Translations under genes and position numbers: made by a program | Shown here: positions 1 through 13,005 of the stretch, in pieces | Layout of the letters: each line of letters starts with the position of its first letter | Position numbering within the stretch: position 1 is the stretch's first letter | DNA from: a virus | Length of the DNA stretch: 25,586 nt | Strand: one strand, 5' to 3' | UHGV virus genome: UHGV-0108017 | Notes under the pieces: model-generated | What the model was told of the DNA's origin: nothing | Seen by the model: only the letters and a program-made list of their open reading frames with translations | Database searches by the model: none

Positions 1-54
1 CATATTGGTCATAGCGCTATCCTTCACGGCTGCATTATATAAAGAGGTAAATCA

Positions 55-67
55 TTTGATACTGCTG
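55..67 (+). repeat. left-end repeat copy 1 (TTTGATACTGCTG), candidate transposase-binding site L1
   Basis: 13-bp motif recurs at 159-171 and 201-213 in direct orientation; followed by AAAAATCCGGG, reminiscent of the Mu L1 region as recalled. Confidence 0.5.
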
Positions 68-158
68 AAAAATCCGGGAGGAAAGTGGATCAAACGGGAT
101 TTGATGGGATAAAACAAACAGTTATGACGTAAAACAGTGTTATGCGCACAACATGTGA

Positions 159-171
159 TTTGATACTACTG
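159..171 (+). repeat. left-end repeat copy 2 (TTTGATACTACTG), candidate transposase-binding site L2
   Basis: Exact 13-mer shared with 201-213; 104 bp from copy 1, close to the Mu L1-L2 spacing as recalled. Confidence 0.5.
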
Positions 172-200
172 TCGCAAAGAAAGCTAAAAACGAAAAAATA

Positions 201-213
201 TTTGATACTACTG
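201..213 (+). repeat. left-end repeat copy 3 (TTTGATACTACTG), candidate transposase-binding site L3
   Basis: Exact 13-mer identical to copy 2; 42 bp downstream of it, close to the Mu L2-L3 spacing as recalled. Confidence 0.5.
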
Positions 214-239
214 ATTTCTGCGATTTTAACGTTTTAAAC

Positions 240-281
240 AGGTTAAAAAACCAGCCGCGGGCTATTGGAATTAGCCCGCCT
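240..281 (-). terminator. putative rho-independent terminator of the repressor transcript
   Basis: 8-bp stem GCGGGCTA (257-264) / TAGCCCGC (272-279) with 7-nt loop; on the minus-strand RNA the hairpin is followed by a UUUUUU run (plus-strand A-run 245-250). Stem overlaps the stop codon at 271-273. Confidence 0.45.
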
Positions 282-855
282 TCGATTCTAAACTACTTGA
301 GAGTTTATCGCTTTCAATTTCTGCCAAAATCTCTCTAACTCTTTCATCCGATAAATGATCTAAAAGTAGAGCTGCTGCACGTTTTCGTCCTTCAAGTTGG
401 ATTAGTTCTTGATTCTCTGGTTCAAGTAACCGTGACAAGTACTTAGCTCCATTTAGCGCGAGGATTTTTGATAATCGCTCTGCCTCTGATGCTTCTAAAG
501 CACTTAGTATAGCAAGAAGGCGCTGTAGCGTTATATCTAGGGGCAATTGGACGTTTTCATCTATTTTAGGTGATATTGGTTCTATATCCTCCTTGCCAAA
601 AACAAGCCAATCAATGCTCACCCCTTCTGCAAAAGCAATCTGACCAGCTACTTGTAGAGATGGTGTCGCATCTTTCTCAAAGTAGTTGTTAAGTGTTGAG
701 AACGGTAGCCCCCACGCCTTCGCCACGGCAGTCTTGGAGCGCCCGCGCATTAACATGGCTAGGCGCTCTTTAATGCTTTCTTTTTGAAACACAGGAAAAG
801 AAAAATCACTTTCTTTTTCAGTGCTTCTTTCTTTTCTGTTAACTATATGATTCAT
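271..855 (-). CDS. prophage repressor (Mu c-like by position), HTH DNA-binding protein
   Basis: Only leftward gene, divergent from ner at the left end. Start taken at ATG 853-855 (MNHIVNRKER...); the ORF-track start at 906 is a GTG. HTH-like segment SKTAVAKAWGLPFSTLNNYF. GC much lower than the rest of the window. Confidence 0.6.
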   Translation of the reverse strand: MNHIVNRKERSTEKESDFSFPVFQKESIKERLAMLMRGRSKTAVAKAWGLPFSTLNNYFEKDATPSLQVAGQIAFAEGVSIDWLVFGKEDIEPISPKIDENVQLPLDITLQRLLAILSALEASEAERLSKILALNGAKYLSRLLEPENQELIQLEGRKRAAALLLDHLSDERVREILAEIESDKLSSSLESKAG

Positions 856-995
856 AAAGAAATATCCTTTTGTAGATAAAAACCACCAAAGAAAGAGATA
901 AAACACCTTTACTTTTCTTTTGTAGTGATCAAATATTTATATGTAGAGATTATCCGGCGGTGTTATCCGCGCAGATAACTTTTAAGGATAAACGA
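856..995. promoter_or_regulatory. divergent early promoter / operator region between repressor and ner
   Basis: Repeated TGTAG(A/T)GAT motifs (871-879, 921-929, 942-950), 18-bp near-palindrome GTTATCCGCGCAGATAAC (962-979), IHF-like GATCAAATATTTA (927-939). Confidence 0.55.
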
Positions 996-1232
996 ATGAT
1001 GTCTATAAATGAAGTTGTTAAACAGGACTGGCACCCCGCGCATGTTGTCGCGGCGGTGCATGTAAAAGGTTTTACTTTACGCTCTCTGTCCATTGAAGCC
1101 GGTTTAAACCAGGATTCTTTAAAGAATGCCCTGTACCGCAAATGCCCAAAATATGAGCGCATTATTGCTGATGCTATTGGTGTTGCTCCGGAGGAGATCT
1201 GGCCCAGCCGTTACGCTCGTAAGGTGGTATAA
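996..1232 (+). CDS. ner: Ner-like DNA-binding early regulator
   Basis: ATG 996 with AAGGA 8 nt upstream. Recognisable Ner/Nlp signature (DWHPAHVVAA...GFTLRSLS...IIADAIGVAPEEIWPSRY). Stop overlaps the RBS of A. Confidence 0.8.
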   Translation: MMSINEVVKQDWHPAHVVAAVHVKGFTLRSLSIEAGLNQDSLKNALYRKCPKYERIIADAIGVAPEEIWPSRYARKVV

Positions 1233-1234
1233 AA

Positions 1235-3322
1235 ATGTTTGTATCAGTTAATGAGCTTGTAGGGCTACCAGGTATGCCGGGAACTGCGCAAGGGGTGCGG
1301 TATTCCATAAGGAAACTGGCCTCATCTGAGCATTTCAGGCGCAAACGTGCGGGTTCAAAAACCATTGAATACAGCATCGACTGCCTCCCTCCGATTACAC
1401 AACGGGCGTTACGTGAGCGACATGTAGCTCAACTGATGGCAAGCGCCCCGCAGGAGATAACTACCCAGCCTCCTGTAAAGCGTGAACGCAAACAAAATGT
1501 TGTACAGCCTGTTGAGGCATATCGCGGTTCGCCACAATTGGTAGAAGAGCGTCTGAATGCGCTTACGGAAAATCAACGTAAAGTTGCAGAAGCGCGCATT
1601 GCTCTTGTCTGTGAAGTTCTACGAATTAGCCAGGAGCCGGGATTCAGTTGTGCCAGCGCTATACGTTTTATTGTGTCGCGGTTAGCACAGGGTAACCTGG
1701 AAGAACGCCTGGAATCTTTGGTCATTACTGCTAATGCCCGTAAAGGAAAAGAGCGAACTCTGAGCGCAATTACGCTCAAACGTTGGATAGCTGCGTTTAA
1801 CAAAGCACAGAATGCCGCAGAACGACTGCTGTTACTGGCACCAGGAAAGCGCGACGAAATAAAACCGGAAGAAATTAGCTGGCTGCCTGAATTTCTGGCG
1901 CAGTATCGTCAGGCTAACGGCAGGCCTATGTCTGAAGCCTATGAGGATTTTGTCGCTGATTGGCAGCGTCGCCATGCGGACGAACCATACATGCTGGAGG
2001 TGATGCCTTCCTATGATGTTGTCCGGTATGCCATGAAAAAACTGCCGGAAGTGGTGAAACAAAAAGGGCGCGTTACCGGCAGTGAATACCGTCAGCTTGA
2101 AGGATTCACCCGCCGCGACTGGACAGCTATGCCGGTGAATTATGTCTGGATTGGTGACGGTCACGGTATGAAGCTGAAATGTGCGCATCCGGTTCACGGG
2201 CGTCCATTTTCACCGGAAGTTACGTTTGTGATCGACGGTGGAACCCGGTTTGTGGTTGGCTGGAGTCTTGATCTTGCGGAGAACGTGTTCGCTGTTGCCG
2301 GGGCGATACAACACGGCATTCGCAATCATGGAAAACCATTCCTGTATTACTCGGATAATGGTTCCGGTGAAACGGCAGATATGCTGGATAAAGAGATCGT
2401 CGGGATTCTGCCCCGTCTGGGGATTAACCACCCCACCGGTATTGCGGGAAATCCGCAGGGACGCGGCATTATTGAACGCCTGAACCGAACATTACCGATG
2501 CGTATAGCCAGGAGGTATCGCACCTATTTCGGCAAGGGTGCTGACCGGGAATCGTTGCGAGTACTTAATCGTGATCTGCGTTCAGCGTTTAATGCCCTGC
2601 AACAGGACAAGCCACTGAGCGCCCGTCAGAAAGCCGCAATGCGCGAGCTGCCGTCCTGGTCAGAACTGATTGAGGCTATCCGTGAGGGGGTGGAGTGGTA
2701 CAACAACCGCCCACATTCTGAATTGCCGATGAAACCAAACGGAAAGCATTACAGCCCGGCAGAGTTCAGAAAAAAACGCTTAGCGGAAGAAGACACTGAA
2801 ATTGAGTGGCTGAGTGATCTTGAGCTGCGCGACATGTTCCGCCCGATGGTGGAGCGTCCGGTAAGACGCTGCGAAATCCAGTGGCTGAACAATATTTACT
2901 ACGCGCCAGAGCTGCGTGATGAACATGGTCGCAAAGTACTTATCAGCTATGACATTCACGATGCCGAGCGAATTACGGTACGCCGTAAGGACGGTAGCTT
3001 TATCTGTGAGGCGATATGGAACGGCAATAAACGCGCAGCCTTTCCTGTCACGGCTGAATATCACAAACAACAGCAGCGTATTAAAGGCATGCGCAAGCGT
3101 GCTGAGGAAAAAATTCGTGATGCAGAGGATGAAGGTATTCAGATTCTGGAACACAAACAGGCTGAACCCTGGCTGGATAATGTTTATCGCCCGGTTGGTA
3201 ATACGGTAACCATCCGGCAACAGGATTATGAGGAAGATTACGACGAAGATTATGAACGCGATTTCAGGCTGGGTTTGCAAAAACTTGCAGCCATACAGGA
3301 ACAGGATGATCCGCTGGCCTGA
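1235..3322 (+). CDS. A: DDE transposase (MuA-like)
   Basis: 695 aa immediately after ner. N-terminal winged-helix-like region resembling MuA; candidate catalytic residues D308 (WIGDGH), D375 (YYSDNGSGE), E414 (IIERLNR) by inspection. Confidence 0.85.
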   Translation: MFVSVNELVGLPGMPGTAQGVRYSIRKLASSEHFRRKRAGSKTIEYSIDCLPPITQRALRERHVAQLMASAPQEITTQPPVKRERKQNVVQPVEAYRGSPQLVEERLNALTENQRKVAEARIALVCEVLRISQEPGFSCASAIRFIVSRLAQGNLEERLESLVITANARKGKERTLSAITLKRWIAAFNKAQNAAERLLLLAPGKRDEIKPEEISWLPEFLAQYRQANGRPMSEAYEDFVADWQRRHADEPYMLEVMPSYDVVRYAMKKLPEVVKQKGRVTGSEYRQLEGFTRRDWTAMPVNYVWIGDGHGMKLKCAHPVHGRPFSPEVTFVIDGGTRFVVGWSLDLAENVFAVAGAIQHGIRNHGKPFLYYSDNGSGETADMLDKEIVGILPRLGINHPTGIAGNPQGRGIIERLNRTLPMRIARRYRTYFGKGADRESLRVLNRDLRSAFNALQQDKPLSARQKAAMRELPSWSELIEAIREGVEWYNNRPHSELPMKPNGKHYSPAEFRKKRLAEEDTEIEWLSDLELRDMFRPMVERPVRRCEIQWLNNIYYAPELRDEHGRKVLISYDIHDAERITVRRKDGSFICEAIWNGNKRAAFPVTAEYHKQQQRIKGMRKRAEEKIRDAEDEGIQILEHKQAEPWLDNVYRPVGNTVTIRQQDYEEDYDEDYERDFRLGLQKLAAIQEQDDPLA

Positions 3323-3323
3323 A

Positions 3324-3360
3324 TAAAAAACAGTCCGCGGGAACGGACTGTTAAGTAAAG
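3324..3360 (-). terminator. hairpin between A and B; intrinsic-terminator geometry on the minus strand only
   Basis: Perfect 8-bp stem ACAGTCCG (3330-3337) / CGGACTGT (3344-3351), 6-nt loop; preceded on + by AAAAAA, so the minus-strand RNA has hairpin then U-run. No U-tract on the + strand. Confidence 0.4.
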
Positions 3361-3394
3361 GAAACAAAGCTGATTTGAATAAACGGAGAATAAT

Positions 3395-4327
3395 ATGACC
3401 GATATTAATGATGTTTTCAACACAATTAATGCGCTGATTACTGACGGTGTAAAAACACAAAGCGCTATCGCCAAAGAAGCTGGCGTGTCGGAGGCCACTC
3501 TTTCTGAACTTCGCAAAGGCCGTTACAAAGGCGATACCGAAGGGATGCACAACAAATTACTGATGTGGCATCAGGGCTGGCAGAAAAGTCTGGAGTTGCC
3601 CGGCACCCCACAACTTGTGGAAACACAGACCCTGCGTGATTTGCGTGAACTTTTTCAGACAGTGCGTGTTATGGGGTGTATCAGCGTTCTGGTGGGTGTG
3701 CCGGGGGTAGGAAAAACCGTTGCGGCCCGTGAATACAGTAACCGCGTATCTAATACCTGGATGGTAACCCTTTCCCCTGCACACTCAACGGTGACGGAAT
3801 GTCTGCTGGAACTGGCAGACGCGCTGGGAATTGATAACCCGCAAAGGAATAAAGGCGCGCTGACCCGTGCCATTCGCAAAAAACTGAACGGTACACGCGG
3901 TCTGGTGATTGTGGATGAAGCTGACCACCTGAGCATTGACGGGCTGGAACAATTACGTGCCATTCAGGATGCCACCGGAGTCGGGATGGTATTGATTGGT
4001 AACCCCAGTCAGTTAGCCAAAGCCACACATCGGGGAACGGATGACCTTGCACGTTTGTTCAGTCGTTTCGCCAGGACAAAGCAACTACGTAAAGCCAAAA
4101 AGGCTGACGTGGTGGCAATTGCGAAAGCCTGGGGCATTGAGGGCGAAGATGAATTATCACTCATGCAGAGCATCGCGGAAAAGCCAGGCGCATTGCGTGT
4201 ATTAACTCACACGCTGAATCAGGCGTGGCTGGCAGCCAGCGGGAAAGGCGTTCCTCTGTCCAAAGGCTACATAAAAGCGGCTTTTAAAGAGGTTTACAGC
4301 AACCCGAAATTACTGAACTGGTGGTAA
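3395..4327 (+). CDS. B: transposition ATPase / target DNA activator (MuB-like, AAA+)
   Basis: 310 aa; Walker A GVPGVGKT (K107) and Walker B LVIVDEADHL seen in translation; N-terminal HTH-like region; sits directly after A as in Mu. Confidence 0.85.
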   Translation: MTDINDVFNTINALITDGVKTQSAIAKEAGVSEATLSELRKGRYKGDTEGMHNKLLMWHQGWQKSLELPGTPQLVETQTLRDLRELFQTVRVMGCISVLVGVPGVGKTVAAREYSNRVSNTWMVTLSPAHSTVTECLLELADALGIDNPQRNKGALTRAIRKKLNGTRGLVIVDEADHLSIDGLEQLRAIQDATGVGMVLIGNPSQLAKATHRGTDDLARLFSRFARTKQLRKAKKADVVAIAKAWGIEGEDELSLMQSIAEKPGALRVLTHTLNQAWLAASGKGVPLSKGYIKAAFKEVYSNPKLLNWW

Positions 4328-4341
4328 GGGGATAATAAATA

Positions 4342-9354: not shown

Positions 9355-9573
9355 ATGGGTAAAGGCTGGAATGCATCCTTTCATCTTGGCAGACGTGAGC
9401 GGCTGCGTCAGGAGGTTTTGCACCGTGTCGCCGGTGGGCCACGGCCTGCGCCCCGCGACTATACCGGTCATGATGGCACCCACGGCAGTTATTACATGAA
9501 AGGCTGGCAGTCAGTTGATATGCCGGAAATTCTTCATCATTGCCTGCTTTACAGGGAGAAACATGATGTCTGA
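9355..9573 (+). CDS. questionable small ORF at the start of the middle region
   Basis: 72-aa ORF with an odd composition; may be non-coding if the middle promoter lies here. Confidence 0.25.
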   Translation: MGKGWNASFHLGRRERLRQEVLHRVAGGPRPAPRDYTGHDGTHGSYYMKGWQSVDMPEILHHCLLYREKHDV

Positions 9574-9928
9574 GCGTTCTGCTCGTCAGTGGCCTGATTT
9601 TTTATCGGTGGTGTTACTGGCGCTGTTATTGTGGATAAGTCTGTTTTGTGGCTGGCGCGCGCTGATGTTTTGCTGTGCCTCGGTTTTCAGTGTTGCTTTA
9701 TGTGTTGCCGGTGATTGTCTGGATGCGCTGATAATGAGCTGCCGGGTGCCTGAACATTTTGCCCGGTTCGTCTGGCCTCTGACCTGGCTGGGGAGTCTGT
9801 CCGGGCTGGGATTAGCCGTGATGGCAACGTCTCAACTGAAAACGGGTCCTGAGCATGTCATCTGGGCGCTGGCCGGATTGCTGACGTTCTGGCTCTCCTT
9901 TCGTTTTCGCGCTCGTCTGTTCGGGTAA
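9563..9928 (+). CDS. predicted multi-pass membrane protein (middle operon)
   Basis: ATG 9563 with GGGAG RBS; hydrophobic segments LSVVLLALLLWISLFCGW, VFSVALCVAG, LGLAVMATS, VIWALAGLLTFWL; Cys-rich. Confidence 0.5.
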   Translation: MMSERSARQWPDFLSVVLLALLLWISLFCGWRALMFCCASVFSVALCVAGDCLDALIMSCRVPEHFARFVWPLTWLGSLSGLGLAVMATSQLKTGPEHVIWALAGLLTFWLSFRFRARLFG

Positions 9929-9937
9929 AGGGGCACC

Positions 9938-10057
9938 ATGTACAGAAAATTCAGTGATGAATGTTTCGGGCCGTCCACGCTGATTAGTGCGATAAAAGTG
10001 ATTGCCCTTGTGGTTCTGATAACCATCAGTGCCGTGGTGTATCTTTCTGTCTGTTAA
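9938..10057 (+). CDS. small single-pass membrane peptide (39 aa)
   Basis: ATG 9938 with AAGGGG 6 nt upstream; MYRKFSDECFGPSTLISAIKVIALVVLITISAVVYLSVC; not in the ORF track (below its length cutoff). Confidence 0.4.
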   Translation: MYRKFSDECFGPSTLISAIKVIALVVLITISAVVYLSVC

Positions 10058-10069
10058 CCGGGGGAAAAT

Positions 10070-10492
10070 ATGCAGCATGATTTATTTGAACACGATCCGG
10101 CAATTCGCCAGTTAATCGGACATATTGATAACATCCCGGCCCCGGAACTGGAATCACGCTGGCCCCGTTCGGTGGTTGATCTGATTGATGTTCTGGAAAA
10201 CGAACTGAAACGCCAGAACGTCAGCAATCCCCGTGAGCTTGCCCGTAAACAGGCCGTTGCCCTGTCCTGTTTTCTGGGCGGACGGCAGTTTTACATCCCC
10301 TGCGGCGATACGATCCTGACCGCGTTACGCGACGATTTGCTTTACTGCCAGTTCAATGGTCGTAACATGGAAGAACTGCGTCGCCAGTATCGCCTGTCCC
10401 AGCCGCAGATCTACCAGATTATTGCCCGCCAGAGAAAGCTGCATACACGACGTCATCAGCCTGATCTGTTCTCACCTGAAAGCCAGAAATAA
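10070..10492 (+). CDS. C: C-like late-gene transcriptional activator (Mor/C family)
   Basis: 140 aa; paralogous to the Mor-like protein; sits immediately upstream of the lysis/late region as in Mu. Confidence 0.8.
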   Translation: MQHDLFEHDPAIRQLIGHIDNIPAPELESRWPRSVVDLIDVLENELKRQNVSNPRELARKQAVALSCFLGGRQFYIPCGDTILTALRDDLLYCQFNGRNMEELRRQYRLSQPQIYQIIARQRKLHTRRHQPDLFSPESQK

Positions 10493-10513
10493 CCGGCATC
10501 CTGCCGGTTATTT
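10491..10513 (+). terminator. terminator-like hairpin after C
   Basis: Stem AACCGGCA (10491-10498) / TGCCGGTT (10502-10509), 3-nt loop, followed by ATTTCC (weak U-tract). Confidence 0.4.
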
Positions 10514-10516
10514 CCT

Positions 10517-10583
10517 GTCACCATAATCCCGCACCTGCCATCTGATTTTTTAGACTGCCATCAGAGCATTTTTTCAGGGAAGC
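10517..10583 (+). promoter_or_regulatory. candidate C-dependent late promoter upstream of lys
   Basis: Contains ATAATCCC and TCCCGCACCT (10527-10536), a 10-mer repeated upstream of gene I (18111-18120). Confidence 0.4.
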
Positions 10584-11102
10584 ATGATGGCGGGGATACC
10601 AAAAAAACTGAAAGCCGCACTGCTGGCGGCAACGATTGCCGGTGGCAGTGTGGGTGGTTATCAGGAAATGACCCGTCAGTCTCTGATCCATCTGGAAAAT
10701 ATCGCTTATATGCCTTACCGCGATATTGCCGGTGTGCTTACGGTCTGTGTGGGACATACCGGGCCGGATATCGAAATGCGCCGTTACAGCCATGCGGAGT
10801 GTATGGCTCTTCTCGACAGTGATTTAAAACCGGTTTATGCGGCAATCGATCGTCTTGTCAGGGTGCCGCTGACGCCATATCAGAAAACGGCGCTGGCAAC
10901 GTTTATTTTCAACACCGGTGTTACCGCATTCAGTAAATCAACGCTGCTGAAAAAACTCAATGCCGGTGATTACGCCGGAGCGCGTGACCAGATGGCCCGC
11001 TGGGTGTTTGCCGCAGGCCATAAATGGAAAGGACTGATGAACCGTCGCGAAGTGGAAATGGCTATCTGGAATATCAGGGGGGCGGATGACCTTCGCCAGT
11101 AA
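10584..11102 (+). CDS. lys: endolysin, phage lysozyme (GH24-like) with SAR-type N-terminus
   Basis: E-x8-D-x5-T catalytic spacing (ENIAYMPYRDIAGVLT); weakly hydrophobic Gly/Ala-rich N-terminus LKAALLAATIAGGSVGG. Confidence 0.8.
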   Translation: MMAGIPKKLKAALLAATIAGGSVGGYQEMTRQSLIHLENIAYMPYRDIAGVLTVCVGHTGPDIEMRRYSHAECMALLDSDLKPVYAAIDRLVRVPLTPYQKTALATFIFNTGVTAFSKSTLLKKLNAGDYAGARDQMARWVFAAGHKWKGLMNRREVEMAIWNIRGADDLRQ

Positions 11103-11472
11103 AAGTTTACTGCTGGCAGCCGTGTTTGCCGCCGTTCTGTCCGGGGTGTTGTGGCACAGGCTGGACAGCACCCGCCACGATAACCAGACGCTGCGCCGTG
11201 AATTACAGACGGAGCAACAGGCCCGCCACACTGCTGAATGGTTGTTACACGGTCAGGAACAGACGATGCAGGTATTTTCCGCTATCCGTGCCGCAAATCG
11301 TGCCGCACGGCTGGCAGATGAGACAGAACATCATGATGCAAAAGAAAAAATTACAACCGCCATTACCGGTGACAATTGCAGCACTCGTCCTGTGCCTGCC
11401 GTTGCTGCTGACAGGTTGCGGGAACTCGAAAAACGCACCCGTGCCATCGGTGGTGATCCTGCCCGAAACTGA
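11086..11472 (+). CDS. i-spanin (Rz-like)
   Basis: N-terminal TM (LLLAAVFAAVLSGVLW) followed by a charged coiled-coil region; start overlaps the end of lys. Confidence 0.65.
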   Translation: MTFASKSLLLAAVFAAVLSGVLWHRLDSTRHDNQTLRRELQTEQQARHTAEWLLHGQEQTMQVFSAIRAANRAARLADETEHHDAKEKITTAITGDNCSTRPVPAVAADRLRELEKRTRAIGGDPARN

Positions 11473-11674
11473 TGCAGAACTGACGGAAGCCACGCCCGTT
11501 CCGCCCATGCCACAGCCCCTGACGTGGGGTGCATCCCTTCTCTGGAATGCTGACCTGTTGATGGCGCTCGGGCAGTGCAACCGCGACAAGGCATCAGTCC
11601 GGGAACAGGAGACCCGAAGGAAAGAAATTTATGAACGAAGACCAGAACCGGGCGGTGGCGCTGCTGCTCGCTGA
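11318..11674 (+). CDS. o-spanin (Rz1-like outer-membrane lipoprotein), overlapped with the i-spanin gene
   Basis: In the +1 frame of the i-spanin; signal peptide with lipobox LLTGC; proline-rich mature region; start among ATG 11318/11333/11336. Confidence 0.6.
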   Translation: MRQNIMMQKKKLQPPLPVTIAALVLCLPLLLTGCGNSKNAPVPSVVILPETDAELTEATPVPPMPQPLTWGASLLWNADLLMALGQCNRDKASVREQETRRKEIYERRPEPGGGAAAR

Positions 11675-11825
11675 ACTCTGGCAGGGGGATACCCGTGATA
11701 TTCCCCGCCCGGCGGCGTATGACCCGCCTGTATTGTGTGCCGGTTGCGGTCGTGAGCTGCGGCCTGATGTGCTGAGACAGCAGCCGATGGCGAACTACTG
11801 CCACTGGTGCCGTGGAGCAGAATAA
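11631..11825 (+). CDS. TraR/DksA-like C4 zinc-finger protein
   Basis: 64 aa; CAGCGRELRPDVLRQQPMANYCHWC = CxxC-x17-CxxC; AAGGAAAG RBS. Confidence 0.6.
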   Translation: MNEDQNRAVALLLAELWQGDTRDIPRPAAYDPPVLCAGCGRELRPDVLRQQPMANYCHWCRGAE

Positions 11826-12124
11826 TGGATTTGATTTCAGTTTTAGCGTTATGGCCTTACCTGTTGCCTGTTGTGGCCGGTGGGGCCGTCTGGGCGATGC
11901 GTCGTAGTTTTGCCAGCACCGAGCGTGTGGAGCGTCTTGAAAACCGGATGACCGAAATGGAAACCCGCTACGCCAGCATCCCTGGCACAGAAGATGTACA
12001 CGAAATGCGCCTGCGAATTGCAGAGCTGTCCGGCGATATCCGGGTGCTGTCCCAGCGGGTGCAGTCATTTTCCCATCAACTGGAGCTGCTGCTTGAAAAC
12101 GCAGTAAACCGGAGTAATTCATGA
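11825..12124 (+). CDS. membrane-anchored coiled-coil protein (Mu gp25-like position)
   Basis: ATG 11825 overlaps the upstream stop; the ORF-track start 11807 is a GTG. N-terminal TM (LISVLALWPYLLPVVAGGAVWA) then helical region. Confidence 0.55.
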   Translation: MDLISVLALWPYLLPVVAGGAVWAMRRSFASTERVERLENRMTEMETRYASIPGTEDVHEMRLRIAELSGDIRVLSQRVQSFSHQLELLLENAVNRSNS

Positions 12125-12411
12125 TTAACGATATTCTGACCGAAGACCGTCGTCTGGTCATCCTGCGTTCCCTGATGGACTGCAATAACGAAGCCAACGA
12201 ATCCATCCTTCAGGACTGTCTGGATGCATACGGACACAACGTTTCCCGTGATGTGGTTCGCGGCCAGATTGACTGGCTGGCAGAGCAGCAACTGGTCACC
12301 GTGGAAAACCTGCGCGGCTTTTATGTCGTAACGCTGACCTCCCGTGGTCAGGATGTGGCGGAAGGCCGTGCCCGCATTGCCGGTGTCAAGCGTCCGCGTC
12401 CCCGTGCATGA
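12121..12411 (+). CDS. hypothetical protein (Mu gp26-like position)
   Basis: 96 aa, ATGA-coupled to the upstream gene; conserved late-operon position. Confidence 0.5.
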   Translation: MINDILTEDRRLVILRSLMDCNNEANESILQDCLDAYGHNVSRDVVRGQIDWLAEQQLVTVENLRGFYVVTLTSRGQDVAEGRARIAGVKRPRPRA

Positions 12412-12998
12412 CAGGAGGCGTGATGGACAGGAAAACACGGGGACGGGCTTCAAAAGTGGATTTACTGCCGGAAAATGTACGTAAAACGCTGCATGAAATG
12501 CTGCGTGATAAGGCGATCCCACAGGCCCGCATTCTTGAAGAAATTAACGCACTGATTGAAGACGCTGGCCTGCCGGATGAGATGAAACTCTCCCGTTCAG
12601 GTCTGAACCGTTACGCGACGAACGTCGAGCAGGTAGGCCATAACCTGCGGCAGATGCGTGAAATGACGTCAGCACTGACCGCAGAACTTGGCGACAAGCC
12701 AATGGGTGAAACCACAAAGCTGATTCTGGAAATGGCCCGCAGCCAGCTTTTTAAGGCCATGATGCGGCAAATCGAAAACCCGGAATCTGACGTGGATATT
12801 GACCTGCTGAAAAATGCCATGCTGGCGGCACAGCGTCTGGAATCCACGGCAATGTCCAGCCACCGGCGCGAGAAAGAAATCCGCCAGGCATTCGCAGAAG
12901 AAGCGGCAAACGCCGTCAGTGAAGAACTGCGCGGGCAGGATGGCATCAGCGAAGAGCTGGAGCAGCGTATCCGTGATGTGCTGCTGGGTAAGGCATGA
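12408..12998 (+). CDS. putative small terminase subunit (Mu gp27-like)
   Basis: 196 aa immediately upstream of the large terminase; AGGAGG at 12413-12418 suggests the true start may be ATG 12423. Confidence 0.5.
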   Translation: MTGGVMDRKTRGRASKVDLLPENVRKTLHEMLRDKAIPQARILEEINALIEDAGLPDEMKLSRSGLNRYATNVEQVGHNLRQMREMTSALTAELGDKPMGETTKLILEMARSQLFKAMMRQIENPESDVDIDLLKNAMLAAQRLESTAMSSHRREKEIRQAFAEEAANAVSEELRGQDGISEELEQRIRDVLLGKA

Positions 12999-13005
12999 GA
13001 GGGTT

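Follow-up and report, generated by a model that had tools for sequence, protein, structure and literature searches.

Host lysis by bacteriophage Mu, dissected experimentally in 2022, relies on an endolysin of the signal-anchor-release (SAR) type, a releasin and a pair of overlapped spanins, and it proceeds without a holin (Chamblee et al. 2022, mBio, PMC9239132). In that work, gp22 was identified by experiment as the SAR endolysin, and deletion of gene 25 blocked lysis for hours despite the presence of active gp22. The gene 25 product, required for freeing gp22 from the membrane, was named a releasin, and the dependence of gp22 on gp25 was mapped to K6 and K7 of the endolysin. The mechanisms proposed for gp25 are proteolysis, charge neutralisation, formation of a transient channel and action through a host partner (PMC9239132). 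A second described system bears on the gene that separates the spanins from the releasin. A working TraR combines a DxxDxA helix tip, a four-cysteine (C4) globular domain and a C-terminal helix touching beta Si1 of RNA polymerase (RNAP) (Gopalkrishnan et al. 2022, PMC9239242); substitution of D3 or D6 lowers activity in both TraR and lambda Orf73, both aspartates being required (PMC9239242). The Mu genes studied by Chamblee et al. recur, nearly unchanged, in UHGV virus genome UHGV-0108017, a viral sequence of 25,586 nucleotides (nt) referred to here, at its full length, as the window; the region of interest is the cassette at positions 11086-12124. This cassette very probably represents the late-transcribed lysis genes of a Mu variant, working as they do in Mu, with gp24 a degenerate TraR descendant. 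The lysis system is already known. The small addition concerns gp24 of Mu itself: from comparisons of sequence and gene order, it is best read as a degenerate offshoot of a TraR lineage found in synteny with the releasin gene among Mu-like phages.

Alignment by megablast against GenBank phages matches window positions 10000-13000 to bacteriophage Mu full-length and without gaps, over 3001 nt at 98.6% DNA identity; D108, SfMu, PhiR68_1 and several Yersinia Mu-like phages are 98.3-99.0% identical to the same interval. Across this interval window coordinates equal Mu coordinates plus 107, and the cassette itself (1039 nt) differs from phage Mu at nine nucleotides. These alignments mark the window as a Mu-type phage. 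The current Mu record, AF083977, labels gp22 SAR endolysin, gp23 i-spanin, Mu_55 (gp23.1) o-spanin, gp24 hypothetical protein, gp25 releasin, gp26 winged helix-turn-helix (HTH) protein and gp27 terminase small subunit. A listing of open reading frames (ORFs), together with direct reading, finds the + strand of 10300-12700 densely packed with genes. A first-pass annotation had described overlapped spanins, a zinc-finger gene and a membrane protein here, and every sequence feature that it named is present where it had been placed. The promoter and genes concerned are as follows.

10510..10576, + strand: Plys, late promoter of the cassette, under activation by protein C; annotation transferred from AF083977 (Mu 10403-10469)
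10587..11102, + strand: gp22, SAR endolysin and functional partner of gp25, just outside 11086-12124; Pfam Phage_lysozyme, E = 1e-37
11086-11472, + strand: gp23, i-spanin, 128 amino acids (aa); PHROG 214 'Rz-like spanin', E = 5e-35
11333-11674 (ATG 11333, stop 11674), + strand: gp23.1, o-spanin, 113 aa
11631-11825, + strand: gp24, C4 zinc-finger protein, 64 aa, 100% identity to Mu gp24
11825..12124 (stop 12124), + strand: gp25, releasin, 99 aa, 100% identity to Mu gp25

The gp24 cysteines are arranged as C36-x2-C39-x17-C57-x2-C60, the CxxC-17-CxxC pattern of the TraR family. All four are invariant in the 19-20 members of the gp24 clade compared, a point on which the first-pass annotation had made its TraR-like label depend, and an L-L-x-E-x-W-Q motif is conserved alongside them. 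gp24 belongs to PHROG 3260, labelled 'unknown function', and is still a 'hypothetical protein' in the Mu GenBank and RefSeq records. Pfam PF01258 (zf-dskA_traR) gives no match to gp24 even at E <= 10, and 0 of 20 clade members match it at E <= 0.01, which places the clade below the threshold of the curated family. The NCBIfam DksA_like model reaches gp24 at E = 0.019, over residues 35-62 only, and scores 15.3 bits where the cutoff is 105. A Pfam NinF match (E = 0.008) was dismissed as spanning only 12 residues. A phmmer search with gp24 against PDB sequences returned 0 matches, and pairwise BLASTP with F TraR is weak (17.7 bits). A word-indexed homologue search found five proteins, and exhaustive HMMER searching of 1.84 billion representatives yielded three full-length representatives of the family plus two frameshifted N-terminal fragments, multi-stretch matches to long unrelated proteins being taken as spurious. 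Searching with a clade profile gave 22 clusters at 90% identity; those with names, assigned to E. coli, Salmonella, Citrobacter and Erwinia, are all 'hypothetical'. Such a small number of homologues indicates a very narrow family, and TraR was not reached from gp24 by sequence search alone. gp24 has 0 occurrences in PMC9239132, and literature searches returned no paper tying Mu gp24 to TraR and no data on RNAP binding or regulation by gp24; a note in the PhiR68_1 GenBank record calls it a 'TraR/YbiI family protein'.

The resemblance to TraR emerges from profiles and predicted structure. Alignment with hhalign pairs the gp24 clade with F-plasmid and phage TraR at 76.8% probability (E = 2e-5) and with the TraR proteins of Mu-like phages at 82.7% (E = 1e-5), both alignments being collinear (29-62 against 30-63). 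The zinc finger of gp24 occupies residues 36-60, as against 37-61 in TraR, and an N-terminal helix is predicted at 3-16. AlphaFold2 (AF2) modelling from four sequences gave a predicted local distance difference test score (pLDDT) of 76.6, and a repetition with 19 sequences gave 84.4. The top Foldseek match of both models is RNAP-bound TraR, 6n57_M (E = 0.29 and 0.13), followed by the zinc fingers of DksA, DksA2 and YbiI, with superposition at about 0.8 Å over 30 residues. None of these hhalign and Foldseek values is significant by itself. The finger-loop motif L-R-x-x-P-x-A-x-x-C is common to gp24 and the TraR proteins of Mu-like phages.

Gene position supplies the remaining evidence on ancestry. 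An annotated DksA/TraR zinc-finger gene lies directly upstream of the gene for DUF2730, the Pfam domain matched by gp25, in Pseudoalteromonas phage HS6 (gp35) and Shewanella phage MuM16-2 (p23), and the gp24 slot of Klebsiella phage Kp4866-3, like that of the Mu-like element inside the Stx1 phage Stx1_JNE122137, contains a small C4 ORF. With scores of 27.7-48.6 bits, all four slot proteins exceed the gathering threshold of PF01258. In Burkholderia phage KS10, too, a dksA/traR gene (gp7) lies between the lysis genes and the gene for the small terminase subunit (PMC2628397). Synteny was sampled more widely in 80 IMG/VR loci anchored on gp27 (gp27 identity 62-100%). Every one has a DUF2730 ORF, and a zinc-finger ORF stands just upstream of it in 78 of the 80, the type being gp24 in 30 loci and TraR in 48. 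PF01258 is matched by 24 of 24 TraR-type proteins tested and by none of the 20 of gp24 type. TraR-type proteins are 68-80 aa long, mostly begin M-x-D-x-x-D-R-A and end in a tail of 8-16 residues after the last cysteine (…CQxxxERKEAxRVGxHR), and the gp27 of their loci is 62-82% identical to that of Mu, whereas gp24-type proteins measure 64-67 aa, begin M-N-E-D-Q-N-R-A in Mu, have a tail of 4-6 residues and accompany a gp27 of about 80% identity or more. It is this shared slot upstream of the releasin gene that settles the matter of TraR ancestry, and we infer that gp24 descends from the TraR/DksA-type zinc-finger gene occupying the same slot in most Mu-like phages. As a statement of ancestry, the 'TraR-like' label of the first-pass annotation is upheld by the CxxC-17-CxxC spacing, the hhalign probabilities of 77-83%, TraR as the top Foldseek match and the PF01258 genes in the slot.

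A different origin, in which gp24 is an unrelated zinc ribbon that reached this form by convergence and serves packaging (with the gp26 winged helix and the gp27/gp28 terminase) or another late function, is quite improbable. It draws on the fact that every direct statistic of gp24-TraR similarity lies under the usual thresholds, and on the tight synteny of the gp24-gp25-gp26-gp27 order with the terminase genes. DUF2730 is also found in phages with cytoplasmic endolysins (PMC9239132), so the block may do more than lysis. The exact 17-residue spacing and the finger-loop motif common to Mu-like TraR proteins speak instead for descent, as do the identical slot, orientation and size of PF01258-type genes in 48 of the 80 loci; a continuous history of replacement is much likelier than independent insertion of a zinc ribbon at the same junction.

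Activity is another matter than ancestry. Where TraR has DxxDxA, gp24 has E3-x-x-N6-x-A8 (ExxNxA), and residue 6 varies within the gp24 clade among N, T, A, Q, I and L; the acidic N-terminus (E3, D4) and A8 are kept. The protein ends four residues past the last cysteine, within the 4-6 of its clade, as compared with 12 in TraR and 8-16 in the Mu-like TraR proteins, and has no counterpart of the C-terminal helix with which TraR touches the RNAP beta lobe. Of the three elements of a working TraR, gp24 keeps the globular domain only. With the DxxDxA motif lost in the Mu clade as well as the C-terminal helix, canonical TraR-type inhibition of ribosomal promoters by gp24 is unlikely, and most likely gp24 no longer performs TraR-type regulation. 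That gp24 is nonetheless a working regulator of this kind, its N-terminal helix entering the RNAP secondary channel to reprogramme host transcription late in infection, is unlikely. The length class and layout shared with TraR (helix at 3-16; finger at 36-60 versus 37-61), the RNAP-bound TraR structure as top match of the model, the retained E3, D4 and A8, the canonical TraR homologues in the same slot of other Mu-like phages and the purifying selection on gp24 would all suit such a role, but it is at odds with the replacement of D6 by other residues across the clade (N, T, A, Q, I, L) in a motif whose D3 and D6 are required (PMC9239242), with a chain that stops before any beta Si1-contacting helix, and with the failure of all 20 clade members to match PF01258. 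In view of the same three observations, the first-pass suggestion that gp24 might modulate RNAP as TraR does is not supported.

Several points weigh against the account of the cassette as a Mu-like lysis unit with a TraR-derived gp24. The scores linking gp24 to TraR are sub-threshold (hhalign below 90%, Foldseek E 0.13-0.29, NCBIfam DksA_like E = 0.019), and short zinc ribbons can arise convergently. The experiments were on Mu, and the window variant carries two substitutions in the SAR domain of gp22 (V15A, G21S) as well as four in gp23.1. Mutants of DksA in the tip aspartate keep RNAP binding (PMC9239242), so loss of DxxDxA is compatible with binding of RNAP.

Pairwise ratios of nonsynonymous to synonymous substitution (dN/dS) for gp24 are 0.08-0.46 overall and 0.08-0.34 outside its 44-nt overlap with the o-spanin gene, values indicative of a gene under purifying selection and no decaying pseudogene. 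By its model and its conservation, gp24 is a folded, selected protein predicted to bind zinc. Its placement puts a 'hypothetical protein' of a model phage into the TraR/DksA gene lineage, and the Mu clade has specifically lost features needed for TraR activity. Tentatively, the gp24 clade of Mu and its enterobacterial relatives could have descended from TraR and taken on a new function, having shed the DxxDxA tip that reaches the active site and the beta-lobe C-helix while being kept by selection. It is possible that such a protein passively occupies the RNAP secondary channel and, late in infection, keeps DksA or Gre factors out; within this proposal it is also possible that it acquired a target unrelated to RNAP. 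If the new-function proposal is true, Mu offers a natural 'separation-of-function' variant of TraR.

The gp24 slot varies further among the sampled loci. A gp24-type subclade (L042, L043, L045, L048, L049 and L050, at about 2197-2415) has a CxxC-16-CxxC finger from which the Q-P-M-A loop motif has been lost, frequently with additional cysteines; the finger loop thus appears to be still evolving inside the Mu clade. In three loci (L093 2235-2387, L095 2165-2317, L096 2260-2412), the slot holds a 51-aa finger of PF01258 type from which the whole N-terminal helix is absent, apparently a second, independent route of truncation of the TraR gene of this slot.

Downstream, gp25 abuts gp24 directly. 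Its start as annotated in Mu is ATG 11825, within a TAATG stop/start overlap with gp24, GTG 11807 being merely the mechanical start of the ORF. The sequence, MDLISVLALWPYLLPVVAGGAVWAMRR..., has an N-terminal transmembrane segment, an RR junction and an acidic, predicted cytoplasmic coiled-coil domain. It counts as a full-length DUF2730 protein (E = 2.5e-13, over 30-100 of 105) and matches PHROG 736 (E = 5e-33). The low-confidence association of this gene with SAR endolysin release in the first-pass annotation proved right, gp25 being identical to the published releasin of Mu. Its partner gp22 agrees with Mu gp22 at 169 of 171 residues; the two substitutions, V15A and G21S, are conservative and fall in the SAR domain. 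The gp22 N-terminus, MAGIPKKLKAALLAATIAGGSVGG, is weakly hydrophobic as expected of a SAR domain and keeps K6 and K7. The proximity of gp24 to gp25 admits the notion that gp24 is a cytoplasmic cofactor of the releasin in SAR endolysin release, an idea with some appeal given the translational coupling through TAATG and the 'unknown partner' model proposed for the releasin mechanism. It is nevertheless highly improbable: expression of gp22 and gp25 from two plasmids suffices for lysis, at about 50 min, with gp24 absent (PMC9239132), and in the same study gp25 alone is reported also to help free heterologous SAR endolysins. Since gp22 and gp25 alone suffice, gp24 is dispensable for endolysin release, and the cofactor role was rejected.

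In two of the IMG/VR loci (L035 and L036, 1977-2717; gp27 96% identical to that of Mu), a truncated endolysin ORF of 142 aa almost abuts the gp25 homologue, and both spanin genes and gp24 are missing. These loci look to be either a defective prophage or a deletion variant of natural origin.

The spanin genes likewise follow Mu closely. gp23 shares 126 of 128 residues with Mu gp23, differing by T15A and G21V in the transmembrane segment. A hydrophobic stretch at its residues ~5-23 (SKSLLLAAVFAAVLSGVLW) precedes charged sequence of helical type, the topology of an i-spanin, and the helical periplasmic domain has a single cysteine, Cys98. The gp23.1 ATG lies 247 nt inside gp23 in the +1 frame; the two genes share 140 nt, and gp23.1 runs 202 nt beyond the gp23 stop to overlap gp24 by 44 nt at its 3' end. 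A nested, out-of-frame o-spanin start with an end beyond the i-spanin gene is the overlapped architecture, one of three standard spanin classes when in the +1 frame (Kongari et al. 2018, PMC6139136). gp23.1 matches Pfam LysC (E = 7.4e-15) and PHROG 3001 (E = 9.5e-30). It begins MMQKKK within a signal peptide, MMQKKKLQPPLPVTIAALVLCLPLLLTGC, which leads to an LLTGC lipobox with Cys29 and, at +2, Gly30 with no Asp, features that predict a lipoprotein; the mature part is 85 aa, Pro-rich, with Cys82. Identity with Mu gp23.1 extends to 109 of 113 residues, the substitutions being L12P, I46T, T48A and I94T. In Mu, the overlapping and previously unannotated gene 23.1 was identified by Chamblee et al. 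(PMC9239132), who found that an amber mutation at W65 gave the spherical-cell spanin phenotype and also examined the mutant with lambda RzRz1 in trans; W65 is present in the window protein. The cassette genes are evidently not chance ORFs. The near-identical Mu genes and the amber phenotype bear out the overlapped two-component spanin that had been proposed from the sequence, and the +1 frame, the LLTGC lipobox, the ~200 nt beyond the i-spanin stop and the 3' overlap with the TraR-like gene are all as described. Calling the o-spanin notably long, by contrast, was not justified. As a member of the P2 LysC family it has a typical length, and the idea of an 'unusually long' o-spanin was rejected for an architecture and family that are standard.

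Carried over from Mu, the operation of the cassette would begin with Plys, activated by protein C, which would transcribe gp22 through gp27 and further. After export, gp22 would stay tethered to the inner membrane through its SAR domain until gp25, a membrane-anchored cytoplasmic releasin, freed it, whereupon the murein would be degraded. In the inner membrane gp23, and in the outer membrane the lipoprotein gp23.1, would join in a complex that bridges the periplasm, and this complex would break the outer membrane as the final step. No holin would be involved. The roles of gp22, gp23/gp23.1 and gp25 are experimental in Mu; for the window, the analysis establishes sequence identity, geometry, synteny and motif loss.

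The surroundings of the cassette contain three further features of relevance.

9515-10057, upstream of C: homologues of gp19 and gp20, middle-operon membrane proteins
10070-10492, + strand: Mor/C-family activator, from the ORF listing
12121-12411: gp26, winged HTH protein; NCBIfam VpaChn25_0724 family, E = 5e-38; PHROG 436, unknown

Mu gp19 and gp20, formerly proposed as holin and antiholin, are without holin activity according to Chamblee et al. (PMC9239132). In the annotated relatives examined, gp26 comes directly after DUF2730 and ahead of gp27, and in the 80 gp27-anchored loci mostly ~565-700 nt separate the end of the zinc-finger ORF from gp27, space for DUF2730 and gp26. The zinc finger, DUF2730, gp26 and gp27 therefore behave as one conserved module, with a role that may reach beyond lysis.

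The left end of the window (1-4330), comprising attL, the immunity region and the 5' part of the transposase gene, has no megablast match to Mu or D108. It matches only Yersinia phages vB_YpM_5 and vB_YpM_6, at 97.7% and starting at window ~33-38. The absence of a Mu or D108 match over the left 4.3 kb means that the phage carries an immunity/early module other than theirs. The first ~30 bases of the window are probably flanking host DNA.

Among described systems, the Mu gp22-gp25 cassette (AF083977; PMC9239132) is the closest: its genes, their order, overlaps and frames all agree with the window. The two share gp24 and gp25 without a difference, gp22, gp23 and gp23.1 are 96-99% identical, and gp22 K6/K7, the LTGC lipobox and the gp25 RR junction are kept; the differences are 9 of 1039 nt in the cassette and, outside it, the left 4.3 kb (immunity region), which is not of Mu or D108 type. 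The overlapped spanin P2 LysB/LysC (Pfam LysC PF23793; PMC6139136) has the same nested o-spanin start in the +1 frame and the same end past the i-spanin stop, whereas in the window the o-spanin tail also runs 44 nt into the following gene, gp24. In the related E. coli Mu-like element L015, these two genes are free of overlap.

Compared with F-plasmid TraR and its phage homologues lambda Orf73, P2 Orf82 and VP882 Orf61 (PMC9239242), gp24 has the same small size (64 versus 73 aa), N-terminal helix, CxxC-17-CxxC at equal residue numbers, conserved finger-loop Pro and Ala8. It departs from them in its ExxNxA motif, its lack of a C-terminal helix, its failure to reach the Pfam and NCBIfam cutoffs and its location in a late lysis operon. 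The TraR/DksA proteins of Mu-like phages pass PF01258, mostly begin M-x-D-x-x-D-R-A and bear a C-terminal helix tail of 10-16 residues, and gp24 has none of the three; yet the genes of HS6, MuM16-2, Kp4866-3, the Stx1_JNE122137 element and KS10 occupy the same slot as gp24, upstream of DUF2730 and before gp26/gp27.

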